Below, one piece after another: positions 11,516-19,933 of a stretch of DNA of 64,000 bases. Position numbers and translations under genes: made by a program. Origin of the DNA: Escherichia phage E26; sequence record MN655998.1. One strand, 5' to 3'. Within the stretch, counting starts at the first letter, position 1; each line of letters begins with the position of its first letter. The notes below the pieces were generated by a model that saw only the letters and a list, made by a program, of their open reading frames with translations, was not told where the DNA came from and did not search any database.

Positions 11516-12370
11516 ATGGCACAAGTTCCAAAGAAAAGAATAGACACCGGTACTGTCGGCAATCCATCGACTGGCGATATCTTATATGATGGCGGCAATA
11601 AAATTAACGATAACTTTGATTCAATATATGACGCATTTGCTGATCAGCGGTTTAAAGACGTAGACCACGGTGTGGGAAGAATGGTTATTCATGCAACCGG
11701 ATACTATCAGAAGCATCCACGTCAAAGCTACGCGGGTTCCGCTGTTGAGATTGGGAGTCTACACGATATCGATACAACTCAAGGCGCACTTATTGCTATT
11801 CTACCTAAAGCAAAGGTCGGCGAGGGTGTTGTATTCATAAATAGTAACGGTAGCCTTTCAACGACGACACCGCTCAATATTCGAACTCAAGCAGGTGATT
11901 CTATTAGCGGTTATTCCGGTGATGCTACAATAACACAACCATTTTCAAAAGTCACTGTTTGGTGTACTGCCGTTGAAGGTAGTCGCGTAACGTGGCGATT
12001 GGGTATCGAAAGTATGTTTACCGATACAACAACGCCATTAGATAAAACAGTTAACGTAACTGGAGTAGCAACAAACGTTGCTATTGCCGCAAAAACAGAA
12101 TACGTTTCCATCAAATTATTAACTACCGCTAGCAATACATCCGGTTCAAAAATGCGTTCAAGTGAAACGCTACTGATGATTGATTCTAAAGCCGGAAAAG
12201 TTTATGCGACGGAATATGCAGTTTTGCAGAAGACAGAAGATGAACTATACATGGTTCGTTATTTCATCGGTTCCGGCGATAAAGTATATGCAGAGTATAA
12301 GGCTACTGGCGAAAATATTCGTTTAGCAGTTAAAGCCGTAGACACTATTAAAATCGGGGTTGCTACATGA
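11516..12370 (+). CDS. 9: baseplate wedge / long tail fiber socket protein gp9
   Basis: 284 aa; N-terminal GDILYDGGNKIN motif as in T4 gp9. Confidence 0.85.
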   Translation: MAQVPKKRIDTGTVGNPSTGDILYDGGNKINDNFDSIYDAFADQRFKDVDHGVGRMVIHATGYYQKHPRQSYAGSAVEIGSLHDIDTTQGALIAILPKAKVGEGVVFINSNGSLSTTTPLNIRTQAGDSISGYSGDATITQPFSKVTVWCTAVEGSRVTWRLGIESMFTDTTTPLDKTVNVTGVATNVAIAAKTEYVSIKLLTTASNTSGSKMRSSETLLMIDSKAGKVYATEYAVLQKTEDELYMVRYFIGSGDKVYAEYKATGENIRLAVKAVDTIKIGVAT

Positions 12371-14169
12371 AACAATTAATTAATATCGGTAACGTTGTTG
12401 ATGACGGTACAGGTGATTATTTAAGAAAAGGTGGTCAAAAGATTAATGACAACTTTTCTGAACTTTATACTAAGCTGGGGGATGGTGATATCCCTCATGC
12501 ATCCGGCGCGTGGAAAACTCACACACAACCAGTATTAAAACCAAATTTTGGTGATGCATGGGCGATTAATACAACGAACAACTCTGTTTCTGTTGAATTG
12601 CCTAAAGGAAGCGCGAGTGATTACAATAAAACAATTAAACTTCGTGATGTTTGGCGCTCATGGGCTGCACATAACGTAACATTGAAGCCAGCACAAGGTG
12701 ATACCATTAAGGGATCTCCAATCGACCGTGAGTTGTATAAAGATTTCATGGATGTTGAATTGGTTTATTGTGCTCCTGGACGTTGGGAATATGTCGAAAA
12801 TAAACGAGTAGATACTATCACCACTTCCGATTTAAGCACAGTCGCCAAAGAAGTTTATATTGCAACCGAAGGACAAACAGACTTCCCCAATGTGTTTGGT
12901 TCCAATACTTACAATATTCGAAATGTTGAAGTGTATTATCGCGGTAACTTGCTTTATTATGGCAAGGATTTAACCGATGATTCTAACTATGGTTCAATCG
13001 GTGAAAACGGTGATATTGTTCCGCTGGACGGTAAAAGCATTAAATTACGCTTCCCTTGTTCGGCGGGTGATACCATTCAAATCATAACTTATATGGACGG
13101 TATCGCATCCTTCCGGTCAAGCTATATTACTCATACAATCCGCGTTTATGAAACAGGAATGACCACTTTGGAATCCATCCCTGGTGAAGTTTGGGTTGGT
13201 GAACTAGCTAATAAGAAAGAATTTACTAATGCTGAATTAGGCGTAAGTAAGCGAGATCTTATTAATCCAAATTCATTTGAATTGCTAATCAACGGCACAC
13301 AAATGATTAAAGCGGGTGATGCGGATTTACCTTCCTTTATTTGTGAAGGCGCTGACGGTGAAACGGAAGAAACCTGCGTACTTGCTGGCGGTCAATGGGT
13401 GGAATCTGGGGAAGATTATTCATTGATGTTCGACGAAAACAGCGTGGTGACTGGTATTAAATTATCTAAAGCACTAGATAACCGAGATACTATCACAATT
13501 CGCTGGTTTAATAATGATATCGGAACATTAATGGAATGGGACGGTGTAGGCGGTATTAAAGAAAAAGCAGATAAAATCTATCTTAATAACGAAGATGAAG
13601 TTACTCTGACAAATCGAATTGAATATACCGATTTCCAGAATCCAAGCCAAGCAACTAAACGCCCAATGGAAGATTATACAGGTCGTGTGATGGATATCTA
13701 TTCCATATTCGATATTTTCTATCCTATAGGCACAATTTATGAAAATGCGCATAACCCAGCTAACCCAGCGACCTATATGGGATTTGGTACATGGGTACGG
13801 TATGCGGAAGGTGAATTTTTGGTTGGTTGGTCATCCGATGCAAGCGATCAAAACTTCGCACTAAACAATAACGATCTTGATACACATGGTCAACCTACAC
13901 ACACCGCAGGTGGTAACGGTGGTGATGTTGCATATCAGATCAAGAAAAATATGATTCCTGAATTACAGAGCAGCGATCGAGTTCTTGTAAAAGATGATAA
14001 CGGAAATATTATTATCGGTGGTTGTCAGGTAGATCCTGATGCAGTAGGTCCAGCGTTTACCAAATATCGCGAAGATAATGTTAAAGTTAATCAGGGAAAT
14101 ACTGACCCATCAATGATGGGTATTCTTCCTCCATACAGAACTGTCTATCGTTGGCTAAGGGTAGGTTAA
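12367..14169 (+). CDS. 10: baseplate wedge protein gp10
   Basis: 600 aa; N-terminus IGNVVDDGTGDYLRKGG matches T4 gp10. Confidence 0.9.
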   Translation: MKQLINIGNVVDDGTGDYLRKGGQKINDNFSELYTKLGDGDIPHASGAWKTHTQPVLKPNFGDAWAINTTNNSVSVELPKGSASDYNKTIKLRDVWRSWAAHNVTLKPAQGDTIKGSPIDRELYKDFMDVELVYCAPGRWEYVENKRVDTITTSDLSTVAKEVYIATEGQTDFPNVFGSNTYNIRNVEVYYRGNLLYYGKDLTDDSNYGSIGENGDIVPLDGKSIKLRFPCSAGDTIQIITYMDGIASFRSSYITHTIRVYETGMTTLESIPGEVWVGELANKKEFTNAELGVSKRDLINPNSFELLINGTQMIKAGDADLPSFICEGADGETEETCVLAGGQWVESGEDYSLMFDENSVVTGIKLSKALDNRDTITIRWFNNDIGTLMEWDGVGGIKEKADKIYLNNEDEVTLTNRIEYTDFQNPSQATKRPMEDYTGRVMDIYSIFDIFYPIGTIYENAHNPANPATYMGFGTWVRYAEGEFLVGWSSDASDQNFALNNNDLDTHGQPTHTAGGNGGDVAYQIKKNMIPELQSSDRVLVKDDNGNIIIGGCQVDPDAVGPAFTKYREDNVKVNQGNTDPSMMGILPPYRTVYRWLRVG

Positions 14170-14170
14170 T

Positions 14171-14815
14171 ATGATTTCGAAAACACGTTCAAAAGCTAGT
14201 GTATTTTCCAGCGATGCGGCGTTTATTTCATACGATCCAGGATCGAAAGATCCTGTTATCGGTGGTTCTCGTCCAATTGGTGGCGTTAATGTCGATCAAT
14301 CAAGAAAAGGTTCCTATGTGAGCAACGTTCAATCTGCAATTGATGACCTTTATTCATTGTCAATGATCCGAATTGGTGATGTGTTGGTTACAACCAACTC
14401 AACTCCACCACAAGCCGCAGGACAGATTGAAACTCTGTCATTTTCTGGTTCTGTTAACAATCAGCATAATCCAGACGCAAACAAAGTATTAATTGATGTT
14501 TTGGGTTATCCATTTATTGTTGATGTTGGGTCTTCCGGCGTTTCTCTATGTGAGAAAGTAACGGAAAAATTTACCGAACTAATGAATAAAAACATTATGT
14601 TCAAAGAAGTAAAAAGAAAAGGAAGTAGCAACGACCAATTAGAAATTCATTATATCGATTCTCTTGAACATCCACCAACCGATATTAACAAGTACGGAAT
14701 TACAATCACAGGAAATGTTGATTCTCCTGCTCGTGTTGGTTATGGTTCATGGTCTCGAATGGGTACAGAAGAGAAATTTGGAACTACCCTATATTATTTC
14801 AAACGTATTGCATAA
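14171..14815 (+). CDS. 11: baseplate wedge protein gp11
   Basis: 214 aa between gp10 and gp12, as T4 gp11. Confidence 0.8.
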   Translation: MISKTRSKASVFSSDAAFISYDPGSKDPVIGGSRPIGGVNVDQSRKGSYVSNVQSAIDDLYSLSMIRIGDVLVTTNSTPPQAAGQIETLSFSGSVNNQHNPDANKVLIDVLGYPFIVDVGSSGVSLCEKVTEKFTELMNKNIMFKEVKRKGSSNDQLEIHYIDSLEHPPTDINKYGITITGNVDSPARVGYGSWSRMGTEEKFGTTLYYFKRIA

Positions 14816-14826
14816 GGTGATGTATA

Positions 14827-16227
14827 ATGGCAAACAATACTATTAACCATGTAAAAGACGATGCTCAATACGTCAAGTTTAACCCTGTAAATGATTGGCC
14901 TCAAAGCATTACCAACGTACAAGCGGCTTTAGCCGCTATTAATGGCTTTGCCGTAAATGGATTACCGGACGCTACGGAAGATACAGCCGGGATCGCTGCA
15001 ATCGCAACTCAGGAAGAAGTAAACGACGGGACAGTAGACAATAAGATCGTGACTCCAAAAACACTGGCTGTTAAAATGTCACGTCCAGATGCCACAAAAG
15101 AAGTAAAAGGCATTACCCGATTTGCCACGATGGAAGAATCGCTGCAAGAGAGCAACGAGAACATAGCAATCGGTCCAGACACACTAAACCATTACTTCAC
15201 CACTAAAAAGGCGTCAGAGAGCGTTCAGGGGACTATTAAGATATGTTCTCTTGAGGCGGCAAAGATTGGCAGTGATGACACAATGGCAGTAACACCGAAA
15301 AAGATGCACACTGCCATTGCACAGATTGTACCTGGATTAATTCCAGATCAAAACACAGCAACCGAAAGCGCACAGGGTTTAGTTCAGTTAGCAACCAATG
15401 CGCAAGTTTTACAAGGCCAGATTCGAGAAGGTTTTGCAATTAGTCCTTATGCATTTGCAAATGCTCGCGCCAATGAGAATCAGGCGGGTACTGTTAAGAT
15501 CGCCAGTCAGTCACAGATGAATGCTGGTTCAGATGATACTGTAGTTGTTTCTGCTAAGAAGTTTGCAAGCACTAAGGCAACAACGTCTCAATACGGTATT
15601 GTTAAACTACGAGACACCGTGGGAAGTGAGGCTAACGCTGCACTATCAGCAAATGCTAAGGTTCTTCCTAGCACTGGCGGTACGGTAAGCGGAAACGTCT
15701 ATAAAGGTTCAAACTCAGACGGCAACCAGTTTGTTACTAAAAATGAATTAGCGAATCACGCAATGCCAATTGGTGGTATTATCCTTTCTGGATTCAATGC
15801 CGATCGAGGTGACTTTCTGATCTGTAATGGTCGTTCGCTGAATAAAAATCAATATCCGCAATTATTTTCTGCGATTGGTTATACCTTTGGTGGTTCAGGT
15901 GACAATTTTAACATTCCTGATATGCGCGGTTTAGTTGCTCGTGGTTGCGATCATGGAAGAAACCTTGATCCAGGTCGTCGATTTGGTTCTTATCAAGAAG
16001 ACGCAATGCAGAGAATTACTGGTAAATTCCCTGTAGCTGACCGCTGGCGCGGTTGGTATGGTGGAGCATTTACTGCACAGCGCGGTCAATGGAGCACGAA
16101 CTATAAAAACGGTGGTGGTGATGATTGGGGTACTACTGTTAACTTTGACTCAGGAAGATCCGTAAGAACGGCTAACGAGACTCGCGTCAAGAGTCTGGCA
16201 TTAAACTATATCATAAGGGTGCGCTAA
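14827..16227 (+). CDS. 12: short tail fiber protein gp12
   Basis: 466 aa; repeated G(T)VKI..(G/A)SDDT..V..KK N-terminal repeats and C-terminal LNYIIRV as in T4 gp12. Confidence 0.9.
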   Translation: MANNTINHVKDDAQYVKFNPVNDWPQSITNVQAALAAINGFAVNGLPDATEDTAGIAAIATQEEVNDGTVDNKIVTPKTLAVKMSRPDATKEVKGITRFATMEESLQESNENIAIGPDTLNHYFTTKKASESVQGTIKICSLEAAKIGSDDTMAVTPKKMHTAIAQIVPGLIPDQNTATESAQGLVQLATNAQVLQGQIREGFAISPYAFANARANENQAGTVKIASQSQMNAGSDDTVVVSAKKFASTKATTSQYGIVKLRDTVGSEANAALSANAKVLPSTGGTVSGNVYKGSNSDGNQFVTKNELANHAMPIGGIILSGFNADRGDFLICNGRSLNKNQYPQLFSAIGYTFGGSGDNFNIPDMRGLVARGCDHGRNLDPGRRFGSYQEDAMQRITGKFPVADRWRGWYGGAFTAQRGQWSTNYKNGGGDDWGTTVNFDSGRSVRTANETRVKSLALNYIIRVR

Positions 16228-17996
16228 TGATTGAACAATTAAACATCCACGAGATCCCACATGTTGACGGTGTACCAAGCGAAGGACAGCACCGTATTAA
16301 CTGGATCAAGAATGGCGAATGTTTAAGCGCAGCAACGACACAGACTGGCAATGACGGGACGCTTAACCGCGCCCCTGTTGCAATTCAAGAAAACGTTGCA
16401 CGCGTAAACGAAAACGCAAAATCAACCGTCGCTAAAGTTAACGAGGTTGTAACGGCGGTTAACGATATTAAAACAACTTTAGGGGTAATTTCTGACGGAA
16501 GTATCATTGATGTGGTTAACCAGACTGTCGCAAAAGTTGAATCCGTCGAAGAGAACTTAGGAGAAACAGCAAGAACTCTGCAAACAACGGTAGACGCTGT
16601 GTCAGAACTTAACATCAAGATTGGTGATCGCCCCGCTGCCGATCCGAGCACAAGAACAATCTATGATGACATTTCTTTCATCAAACAAGAAATGGGTTCT
16701 TATCCTAACTTTAATATCAATGGTTCCCCTGATGCTGGCAGTTCCGGTTCTGGCATCAAATACCGAGTTATTCAGAATACCGCAGCATTAAATGACCACG
16801 GTCGCCGAATCGTTCAGCTTGAAAACGACTGGCAAGATTCTGACGTAGGCGAGTTAACAAGACAAGTTAACAAAATGCGCAGTGAGATCGGAGACACGTC
16901 TCTTGCCACACAAGAAAATGTGTATGTTCGTCTCCGCACCAACGCAAGAAACATTGCTAACTTATCAAACGAAGTTCTAGAAGTCAAGAAAGCAATTTTG
17001 TTTGATTCAATCCCTGATATCGGGACTAAAGTCACTACGCTGGGAACTAATTATGAACGTCTAAACAATGATGTTAATGGTGTAGATTCCGGTATTCGTC
17101 CTCGTCTTCTGGCTGTCGAGAATAAGATCGGAACGCCTCAATCGGCTGGAAGCATTGATTATCGATTAACCAACACAGAGCGAGAATTTTTAGATCTTAA
17201 ACAGGTTGTTGGTGTAAGCGGTGCTGACGGTTTGCGCGGTGAAGTTGTTCGACTTTCCAATGAGATTGGCACTGACAGCGATCGACATACTCTAGCCGGA
17301 CGTATTAAAGTTGTAGAAAACACTCAGGGTCGGTTAGAAGCAAGCGTACAGGACATGGAACAGATTGTAGGTGATCGCGAATCAGGTTTGACCGCTGGCG
17401 TTATTAAACTATCAAGTGATATCTATGGCGATGATGGTTCAGAAGATCCATTTACTCAGAAAGGCGTGATTAAAATCGTCAAAGAGCTACAAACATCTAA
17501 CGGAAACAAAGTAGATGATGTACCTGATGACGGTTTTCATTATCTGCGTAAGCACGGCGAATGGGTGCAAGTTGCATATGCTGCTGGAGCATTTAAAAAT
17601 ACCGCAGATATTACGGTTGAACTTGACGAACAGGATGTTTATAAACCGATTCCGCTAAACGATATGACCGAAGAAGTTCCTGCGCGTGGAATGGTTAAGA
17701 GCGAATCTCTTGTTACGGTTAACGACAAAGGCTTATTCCGTTGTGATTTCCGTTGTTCTGTAAATGCGGCACATAACGCTACTTTCGTAGTCGGTATTGC
17801 TAAAAATGGTCTGATTGTACATGAGGTACGAAATGGTCATTATGGAGCTGATGATTTAATTAGCTATTCTACCAGTGCTTTCCTAAATATTGAAAAGGGC
17901 GACCGGATCGATATTCGCATTAAGGGCGTATCCGAAGAAGCATTAGCGCAACAGCTACAAATTAAAGAGTTCCTCTTTGGGATTTCTCCGGTATAA
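16227..17996 (+). CDS. wac: fibritin (whisker) with internal foldon-like motif and extra C-terminal domain
   Basis: 589 aa; N-terminus PHVDGVPSEGQHRINWIKNGE as T4 Wac; foldon-like FHYLRKHGEWVQV is followed by about 140 further residues. Confidence 0.85.
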   Translation: MIEQLNIHEIPHVDGVPSEGQHRINWIKNGECLSAATTQTGNDGTLNRAPVAIQENVARVNENAKSTVAKVNEVVTAVNDIKTTLGVISDGSIIDVVNQTVAKVESVEENLGETARTLQTTVDAVSELNIKIGDRPAADPSTRTIYDDISFIKQEMGSYPNFNINGSPDAGSSGSGIKYRVIQNTAALNDHGRRIVQLENDWQDSDVGELTRQVNKMRSEIGDTSLATQENVYVRLRTNARNIANLSNEVLEVKKAILFDSIPDIGTKVTTLGTNYERLNNDVNGVDSGIRPRLLAVENKIGTPQSAGSIDYRLTNTEREFLDLKQVVGVSGADGLRGEVVRLSNEIGTDSDRHTLAGRIKVVENTQGRLEASVQDMEQIVGDRESGLTAGVIKLSSDIYGDDGSEDPFTQKGVIKIVKELQTSNGNKVDDVPDDGFHYLRKHGEWVQVAYAAGAFKNTADITVELDEQDVYKPIPLNDMTEEVPARGMVKSESLVTVNDKGLFRCDFRCSVNAAHNATFVVGIAKNGLIVHEVRNGHYGADDLISYSTSAFLNIEKGDRIDIRIKGVSEEALAQQLQIKEFLFGISPV

Positions 17997-18004
17997 GAAA
18001 TTAA

Positions 18005-18025
18005 AGGGGCGTTAAGCCCCTTTTT
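18005..18025 (+). terminator. rho-independent terminator after wac
   Basis: GGGGC-GTTAA-GCCCC hairpin followed by TTTTT. Confidence 0.7.
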
Positions 18026-18042
18026 CGTTTATAGGTGATATT

Positions 18043-18975
18043 ATGTCAGGATATGTAACCAATAACCCAAGAGAATTAAAAGACGCTATTCTGCGTCGTT
18101 TAGGCGCACCAGTAATTAACGTAGAAGTAACAGAAGACCAGATTTACGATTGTATTCAGAGAGCATTAGAACTCTATGGGGAATATCATTTCGATGGTGT
18201 GAATAAAGGATATAAAGTATTTCGTGTCAGTGCAGAGCAAGCGCAACATGGGGTATTTGATTTAAGCGATTCTGGAGTATTCGCAGTAACTAAAATAATT
18301 AGAACAAACGTAGGTAGCGCGGCTACGATGGATGGCACTGCCGTTTATCCGTGGTTTACTGACTTTCTGTTGGGTTTAGCGGGTGTAAATGGCGGTTTAG
18401 GATCTGGCTGTAGTAAATTTTATGGACCAAATGCAATGGGCGGTGATCTGGGATATTTCGAACAGCTTATGAGCTATCGAGCCACTATGCAAAATATGCT
18501 TAATCCGCTGCCAGATTATTGGTATAATAGCGCAAACGGACAACTTAAGATCACAGGAAACTTCCGAGAAGGCGATCTCATTGTTGTTGAATTGTATGTT
18601 AAAAGTTATGTTGATGTACCGGACATGATGGGGGCGGTTGCTGGTTATGCTCATGCGGGAGGATGTTCTACCGCTGGCGGGATTAGCGCCGTTTATGATA
18701 ATCCAACCGCCGGATTGAGCGGTATTGTTGCTGGCATGGGTCCGATCAGCGAGAACAAACAGGGCGCATATAATAACCGCTGGGTTAAAGACTGCGCGAC
18801 CGCGTTTACTCGTGAGCTATGGGGGCAGATCTTAGCTAAACATCAAGGGTTGCAATTACCAGGTGGTGTAACAGTTGATGGTGTCAGAATCATCGAAGAA
18901 GCACGCGCGGATATTGAGAAATTACGACAAGAATTGGAATTACTAGACCCACCGTTTGGGATCATTATGGTTTAA
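18043..18975 (+). CDS. 13: neck protein gp13
   Basis: 310 aa; T4 gp13-like ([29 protein letters not shown]). Confidence 0.88.
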
Positions 18976-19036
18976 TGTTTACAATCCGTTCTCGTTTATG
19001 TATAATCAAGGCGAGAACGGATATAGGAGTTTAACA

Positions 19037-19933
19037 ATGAATCATTATGTGTATAAAATAACCAACAAATTAAATGGTAAAATCTATATCGGCGTCCGTA
19101 GCTGTGATTGCGATATCGACAAAGATCCTTATATGGGTAGTGGGGTATTAATTAAAAAAGCTATCCATACTCATGGAGTTGAAAATTTTCACAAAGAAAT
19201 TCTCGAAACATTTGAAACAAGAGAAGAAGCTAATCAAGAAGAAGCCAGATTAGTGACACTAGATTTTGTTAACCGACAAGACACATACAATCTAATTGAA
19301 GGTGGTCTGGGTGGTTGCTACTGGAATACATTTTCAGAAGAAAAAAAGGAAGAGATCAAGAACAAATTAAGACAACATAAACCAGATCCAGAACAATTAA
19401 GAAAATTACATGAATCAAATAGAGGCGTTCCGCGTTCGGAAGAGACTAAATTGAAAGTTAGCCGAGCAAATAAAGGAAGAATCCACACGGAGCAGTCAAG
19501 AAAAAACATGTCCGAAGGGCGAAAAGGTATGGTGTTTTCAGAAGAACACAGAAAAAATATATCAAAAGCAAATGTAGGACGTGTACATTCTCCAGAAACA
19601 TTGGAAAAAATAAGATTAGGGAATTTAGGAAAAAAATTAAAACCAGAAACAATAGAAAAACTAAGAGAGGTTGCCAAGAATCGTCCTCCTGTCTCAGAAG
19701 AAACAAGAAGAAAACTATCAGAGGCAGCAAAGAAACAAATAAGAAACTTCGGGGATAAAATAAGTAAAGGGAAAATAGATAAACCTATATCAACGAGCAA
19801 AACAGTGTATGCGGAAGGTGTTGAATATCCTTCTGTTAGTGTTTGTGCAAGGGCATATGGGATTTCAAACACATCAATATTGAAGAGAATTAATTCAACG
19901 TCAGAAAAATGGAAGGAGTTTTATTATGTTTGA
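19037..19933 (+). CDS. GIY-YIG homing endonuclease (Seg-like)
   Basis: 298 aa from ATG with AGGAG RBS; GIY-YIG core [14 protein letters not shown]; repeated NUMOD3-like basic motifs; C-terminal HTH-like tail. ORF-track start at 18956 rejected (inside gp13). Confidence 0.8.

Follow-up and report, generated by a model that had tools for sequence, protein, structure and literature searches.

Fibritin, the product of the wac gene, serves in textbooks as the model of a fibre that ends in a foldon, and the neck whiskers of T4-type phages have been thought to act solely on the phage's own tail fibres. In the T4 protein (PDB 1aa0, 2bsg, 3j2o) the foldon is both terminal and sufficient for trimerisation. 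The 'RB49 type' has been described as one among eight alternative forms of the fibritin C-terminus, with the 44RR type listed apart from it (Letarov and Krisch, 2013; PMC3797505). Trimers of RB49 fibritin have been reported, and its expanded C-terminal domain was found to be needed for folding and trimerisation, the foldon-like motif alone being insufficient; a need for extra C-terminal sequence is described for others of the alternative forms too (PMC3797505). This C-terminal moiety has been termed 'alien' or 'unrelated to that of T4 Wac' with no fold assigned to it (PMC3797505, PMC9569957), and its role was given as unknown (Golomidova et al., 2022; PMC9569957). The present analysis concerns the wac gene of Escherichia phage E26 (sequence record MN655998.1), within a stretch of 64,000 nucleotides referred to here as the window. 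The gene (16227..17996, plus strand) is an uninterrupted open reading frame (ORF) of 589 amino acids plus a stop codon, and its product is likely, taken as a whole, to be an RB49-type fibritin that carries a C1q/TNF-like knob at its tip. The architecture itself is already known, being that of the published RB49-type fibritin and common to all close relatives; what may be added is the assignment of a fold, the homology with the 44RR-type module and the recognition of the window gene as a recombinant. A literature search of incomplete coverage returned no description of any fibritin in terms of a C1q/TNF fold or a jelly roll.

By its sequence relationships the reading frame is the wac/fibritin gene of a Krischvirus, that is, of an RB49-like, T4-type phage. 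The product shares 99.8% amino acid identity with the 'neck whiskers protein' of Escherichia phage vB_EcoM_PHB13 (Krischvirus RB49), the family PHROG 1056 ('fibritin neck whisker') covers residues 1-581 (E=3.6e-186), and the T4 fibritin structures 2bsg and 3j2o are collinear with residues 6-427 (T4 residues 5-432; E=4e-50). The N-terminal domain (residues 1-50; 16227..16376, plus strand, as for all parts of the gene given below) corresponds by homology to the domain with which T4 fibritin attaches to the neck, and aligns with T4 residues 5-50; the T4 N-terminal fragments 1ox3 and 2ibl match residues 6-84 (E about 1e-15), and the domain is the best-conserved stretch among distant homologues. 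Attachment to the neck by this domain of fibritin is described in the literature (PMC3797505). The shaft (residues 51-425; 16377..17501) is of the RB49-type allele and has its homologue in the T4 segmented coiled coil, an assignment made from collinearity with the T4 protein. The Pfam family Fibritin_C matches residues 368-451 (17328..17579), comprising the last coiled-coil segments and the foldon, at 104.7 bits (curated cut-off 21; E=2.9e-30) and over profile positions 2-92 of 93. At the end of this match lies an internal, foldon-like beta-hairpin motif, DDGFHYLRKHGEWVQV (residues 434-449; 17526..17573), which is identical to the T4 foldon PRDGQAYVRKDGEWV at 10 of 17 positions of the HMMER alignment and in which D435, Y439 and R441 do not vary, and W446 reaches a conservation of at least 90%, among 11 homologues, down to 30% identity. 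On this evidence the homology to the foldon is genuine. In a monomer AlphaFold2 model of residues 385-589 the segment has a predicted local distance difference test (pLDDT) value below 50, which speaks neither for nor against the hairpin, as this would be expected to fold only in the trimer. In the phage collection, the alignment of T4-type fibritins stops at residue 449-452 of the window protein, and these proteins therefore end at the foldon, whereas the window protein continues for exactly 140 codons (17574..17993) until its stop codon. The two proteins thus share a homologous N-terminal domain, shaft and Fibritin_C/foldon segment, as well as their gene position, and differ in that the foldon of the window protein is internal and followed by a globular domain. 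A preliminary description of the gene, made from the letters of the window, had matched the N-terminus and coiled-coil body to T4 Wac, had noted a foldon-like segment with about 140 residues beyond it, and had set this against the terminal foldon of T4; on all of these points it was correct.

For the C-terminal domain (residues 450-589; 17574..17993) a C1q/TNF-like jelly-roll knob is predicted. Modelling by AlphaFold2 from an alignment of 11 sequences gave an all-beta structure of 10-11 strands with a mean pLDDT of 92.5 and a predicted template modelling score (pTM) of 0.86, and the C1q/TNF-like jelly roll was the common answer of three independent fold comparisons of this model. Its fold neighbours (comparison score in brackets) include the Caprin-2 C1q domain (15.1), EDA-A1 (15.0), ExsFA (14.6), the BclA C-terminal domain (14.5), C1q (14.0) and collagen VIII NC1 (13.8), and, among phage and bacterial proteins, the cyanophage A4 tail fibre (14.5), the CBD of the cyanophage A-1(L) short tail fibre (14.0), PRD1 P5 (12.8), the receptor-binding domain of mycobacteriophage TM4 gp23 (12.5), the receptor-binding protein (RBP) of lactococcal phage 1358 (10.9) and a Photorhabdus TNF-like lectin (10.8). 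Foldseek searches of the PDB returned the same families (E about 1e-6), and in BFVD the C-termini of hundreds of phage fibres were matched, at E values as low as 1.7e-9, among them those of proteins with collagen repeats or a C1q annotation. The model is a ten-strand jelly-roll beta-sandwich that can be superposed on the heads of C1q, TNF or BclA, so that the compact and perhaps C1q/TNF-like beta-sandwich suggested in the preliminary description holds at the level of prediction. In sequence terms, BclA_C matches the window domain at E=0.0018 and 18.6 bits, below the gathering cut-off of 38; for a 54%-identical relative (P0018) the BclA_C match is likewise sub-threshold (E=2.4e-6, 27.9 bits), a more distant protein (P0028) has a sub-threshold TNF match (E=1.5e-5), and distant single-domain relatives found by exhaustive profile search match TNF or C1q. 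As Pfam gathering thresholds are not reached, the domain is, on the strength of the model, a fold-level relative of the C1q/TNF superfamily and falls outside the curated sequence families C1q, TNF and BclA_C. Compared with C1q/TNF heads on other fibrous stalks (C1q, collagen VIII/X NC1, and BclA and ExsFA of the Bacillus exosporium), to which the knob has 10-20% sequence identity, the stalk of the window protein is an alpha-helical coiled coil with a foldon and not collagen. The TNF-like heads at the fibre tips of other phages (A-1(L), A4, TM4 gp23, 1358 RBP, PRD1 P5) are carried by tail or vertex fibres, with receptor binding demonstrated or assigned, whereas the knob considered here would be carried by a neck whisker and is predicted only.

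Taken together, these data allow a model of the whisker to be proposed, in which a T4-like, neck-binding N-terminus would be followed by a trimeric shaft of segmented coiled coil, the retained foldon-homologous hairpin and the knob, the 140-residue jelly roll giving every whisker a globular and trimeric knob at its distal end. A C1q/TNF jelly roll has its two chain ends at the base, which should place the knob immediately on top of the foldon, at the whisker tip; the linker between foldon and knob is nearly absent, with strand A starting about three residues past V449. Close structural neighbours of the knob are all obligate trimers, and the heads of C1q, collagen VIII/X NC1 and BclA act as C-terminal trimerisation nuclei for fibrous stalks. 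The knob may likewise be the folding and trimerisation nucleus of the whisker, in agreement with the requirement reported for RB49 (PMC3797505), and the predicted structure together with this nucleating role is considered quite probable. Sequence entropy is 0.2-0.3 in the strands assigned to the inner sheet (A, H and F) and 0.7-1.05 in strands B' and E and in the A'-B' loop, the strand-to-sheet labels having been taken from the canonical topology and not from the model coordinates. By analogy with the fold family, this pattern fits a trimer with the inner sheet as its interface. Variability concentrated in the putative apex loops, the pattern of a receptor-binding head, was looked for in the domain and not found; variation lies instead in the outer strands and towards the N-terminus, within the first third, and both apex loops, CD (HNAT) and EF (NGHYGxD), show conservation throughout Krischvirus and in the 54%-identical relative.

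The C-terminal domain is a regular component of fibritin in the close relatives of this phage. A tblastn search with the domain found 57 phage records, all of them Krischvirus (RB49, Phi1, JSE, GEC-3S, ECD7, KFS-EC and others), at 80-100% identity and with constant domain length, and these are all the Krischvirus records in the phage collection. In each of 12 Krischvirus genes that were fetched, wac has 589 codons and no indels. The RB49-type fibritins have the same protein family and architecture as the window protein, and the present account differs from the published one in that the foldon homology is recognised and a fold is assigned by prediction. The unusualness of the extension that the preliminary description had implied is therefore not borne out; of the two findings that it had named as contrary to its reading, a C-terminal region normal in close relatives was obtained, while the foldon-like motif did not turn out to be spurious (Fibritin_C E=2.9e-30). 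A word-indexed protein search with the 140 residues of the domain gave just two fragments of 110 amino acids, and the full-length protein was used as query instead. Overall, the domain is probably shared by several genera, namely Krischvirus, Biquartavirus, Tulanevirus and perhaps Gualtarvirus.

Relative to RB49, the window gene is chimeric. Its shaft has 99.7% amino acid identity to that of RB49, with a synonymous divergence (dS) of 0.03, and 77% identity to that of JSE, with a saturated dS of about 1.7, whereas residues 453-589 have 82% identity to RB49 and 94% to JSE. The last difference from JSE before the switch is at 17651, with just two nucleotide differences following up to 17996, and the first of 71 differences from RB49 in the domain is at 17654, a change that is also seen in sliding-window identity. 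The comparison of alleles thus indicates a clean recombinant, in which an RB49-type shaft is joined to a JSE-type knob at a breakpoint near residue 476 (17651..17654). Makalu002 has a different breakpoint, near 17700. For the ratio of nonsynonymous to synonymous divergence (dN/dS), the shaft gives 0.04-0.18 and the knob 0.17-0.5, values indicative of purifying selection throughout wac that is laxer in the knob. Together with the clean breakpoint, this difference is taken to favour a knob that evolves independently. The C-terminus of gp12 and the wac shaft (about 15970..17650) form a variable island in Krischvirus, whose deep alleles number at least three (RB49, JSE and JK32 types) and are 20-30% apart at the nucleotide level, with saturated dS and a dN/dS of about 0.1; in JK32 the end of gp12 is RB49-type and the wac allele its own. 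The Pfam entry PF28231.1 was pre-listed for the JSE/JK32-type fibritins P0005, P0006, P0007 and P0009 and not for the window-like ones. Downstream, nucleotide identity over the start of gp13 (18044..~18490) is 94-100% for nearly all of 11 comparable genomes, the exception being UPWr_E1 (81-91% from about 18310), and towards the 3' end of gp13 (18494..18975) identity falls to 73-97%. In five genomes compared, gp34, gp35 and gp36 have 95-99.8% amino acid identity whichever wac allele is present, and the alleles of gp37 show no co-segregation with those of the knob, although this test for covariation of knob and tail fibres is a weak one, as gp34-36 hardly vary.

A relationship to the fibritins of Aeromonas phages is also suggested. 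These 44RR-type proteins (43 records in Biquartavirus and Tulanevirus) have 587-588 amino acids, described as the same length as the window protein, and a degenerate foldon, after which comes a C-terminal domain that spans about 140 residues and terminates in IVPV. Identity is about 22%, and the foldon is largely degenerate, reading PAETGRWYFENGAWKK in 44RR2.8t (wac at L002 3001..4764), in which an annotated intergenic repeat ('6 copies' in the genome) directly follows wac at L002 4806..4907. Because alignment of the Krischvirus and 44RR-type domain profiles by hhalign spans 121 collinear columns as far as the C-terminus, at a probability of 84% (E=7.7e-6), the RB49-type and 44RR-type modules are probably one diverged domain. 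Against the lone domain of the Providencia phage (Gualtarvirus), as a single-sequence partner, the Krischvirus profile gave a probability of 12%; the layout is the same in this fibritin, and BclA_C matches it below threshold. The foldon motif has decayed in distant fibritins that carry the domain, as in 44RR and in P0020, with P0024 listed likewise; in P0020 the segment reads AGQDGSYYIRDNVLTPMT, with the tryptophan lost, and identity falls from 44% at the N-terminus through 32% in the shaft to 15% in the foldon segment. Such decay would fit a knob that has taken over trimerisation. The exhaustive profile search with the domain gave 14 matches, from which P0025, P0026, P0029 and P0034 were rejected as HYR, FG-GAP, Ig or dockerin repeat proteins that match in many stretches. 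Distant relatives of the knob from metagenomes (P0028, P0031, P0032, P0033 and P0035) include small stand-alone proteins of 154-209 amino acids, one protein of 313 amino acids with two tandem TNF/C1q-like domains, and a fibre-like protein of 553 amino acids with the domain at its C-terminus.

Beyond its place in folding, the knob could be a distal binding module of the whisker, and it may act as an accessory, low-affinity adhesin for a component of the host surface. This role is put forward tentatively, with a chance somewhat short of even, and is ranked slightly above a pure docking of the tail fibres. The preliminary description had likewise suggested a secondary adhesin, or else an environmental sensor, either of which would be compatible with the computed results. 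An added ligand-binding function is favoured because Fibritin_C is kept upstream and because the fold is common as a receptor-binding head at phage fibre tips; the retained T4-like segment could still make the T4-type contact with the tail fibres, and the knob changes allele separately from the shaft while gp34-36 stay near-identical and gp37 does not follow the knob. Several points weigh against this reading as a whole. Neither C1q nor TNF nor BclA_C reaches its Pfam gathering threshold, and the window protein is without any C1q/TNF match; the assignment of strands to sheets follows canonical topology, and that the knob is a trimer is deduced from its fold family and from the trimeric shaft. 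The conserved CD and EF loops would suit a conserved partner, for example the nearly invariant long tail fibre, no less than a variable ligand on the host, host-range differences of RB49-like phages have been explained by gp38 with no appeal to Wac (PMC9569957), and the recombination of knob alleles could reflect easy crossover beside the highly conserved gp13 and not selection.

The strongest alternative is that the knob is a docking module for the long tail fibres, which would catch the tail-fibre knee during assembly and hold the fibres 'up' under unfavourable conditions, with no binding to the host. Such a role would follow the T4 analogy, in which fibritin's C-terminal portion touches the tail fibre near the knee (PMC3797505), and the apex loops conserved across Krischvirus and in the 54%-identical relative would make a coherent counterpart to the candidate partners gp34, gp35 and gp36, themselves 95-99.8% conserved, while gp38 alone has been held to account for host range (PMC9569957). 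However, the T4-homologous Fibritin_C segment is kept upstream and could itself carry this function, and the tail-fibre proteins show no change to match the free recombination of knob alleles that have diverged by about 20%; docking alone is a serious possibility, if less than probable. A second alternative limits the knob to a cap for folding and registration, a C-terminal trimerisation nucleus that replaces a weakened foldon and binds nothing. The nucleation of trimeric stalks by C1q, collagen NC1 and BclA heads would be in line with such a cap, as would the decay of the foldon motif in distant lineages that carry the domain and the published requirement of the expanded domain for RB49 fibritin to fold and trimerise (PMC3797505). 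However, a cap would not need conserved, solvent-exposed apex loops, the keeping, across several genera, of a head of 140 residues where the long fibre is most exposed suggests more than folding, and most structural neighbours bind ligands, so that folding alone is a rather unlikely account of the domain. That the extension is an artefact of read-through, gene fusion or mis-assembly with an unrelated downstream ORF can be dismissed, as no evidence for it was found and it is refuted by the indel-free ORF of 589 amino acids in 12 independently sequenced Krischvirus genomes and by metagenomic proteins, and further contradicted by a dN/dS below 0.5 in the region, a terminator after the stop codon and the confident domain model.

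The proposal of a knob that nucleates the trimer and may also bind a ligand can be taken further, to a scenario that we regard as doubtful. By analogy with other fibre-tip heads, the whisker-tip knob might be a third receptor-binding device of T4-like phages in addition to their long and short tail fibres. It would be a head of the lectin-like or pattern-recognition kind, with a conserved apex that may depend on cations, and would reversibly tether the virion to a polymer of the host surface; its alleles would be shuffled among co-circulating Krischvirus, and the head would be common to RB49- and 44RR-type fibritins. If true, fewer independent acquisitions of C-terminal modules would be needed in the evolution of fibritin. 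At present, the gene architecture is a correct re-discovery of something known, and the fold assignment, the link between the RB49 and 44RR types (treated as unrelated, and here suggested to share one domain) and the shaft/knob chimeras are modest additions that make the role of alternative fibritin C-termini testable. A C1q/TNF-like whisker head gives the long-known RB49-type module a concrete structural hypothesis, as trimerisation nucleus, tail-fibre docking site or accessory adhesin, and natural chimeras should be useful in this respect, RB49 on the one hand and ECD7 and PHB13 on the other having near-identical shafts and different knobs.

The surroundings of wac follow the T4-type gene order, with gp10 (12367..14169), gp11 (14171..14815), gp12 (short tail fibre; 14827..16227), which adjoins wac upstream, and gp13 (neck; 18043..18975), which adjoins it downstream; an inserted homing-endonuclease ORF, gp14 and gp15 follow. 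The position of wac between gp12 and gp13 is shared with 12 other Krischvirus genomes and with 44RR2.8t. Directly 3' of wac and before gp13, a strong hairpin with a T-run resembles an intrinsic terminator (18003..18031, plus strand; hairpin 18003..18023). Its stem has 8 bp with 5 G-C pairs (AAAGGGGCGTTAAGCCCCTTT, then TTCGTTT), the hairpin is able to form on both strands, and a terminator is annotated at the same site in G2494, G2248 and Makalu001. The endonuclease ORF between gp13 and gp14 (18956..19933, plus strand) is of the GIY-YIG (Seg-like) type, and its true start is probably a Met near 19037. It occurs at this site in the window, PHB13, KFS-EC and Makalu001/002; the site holds different endonucleases in Phi1 (segC) and G5211 and is empty in RB49, JSE, JK32, G2494, G2248, UPWr_E1 and SFHK24.

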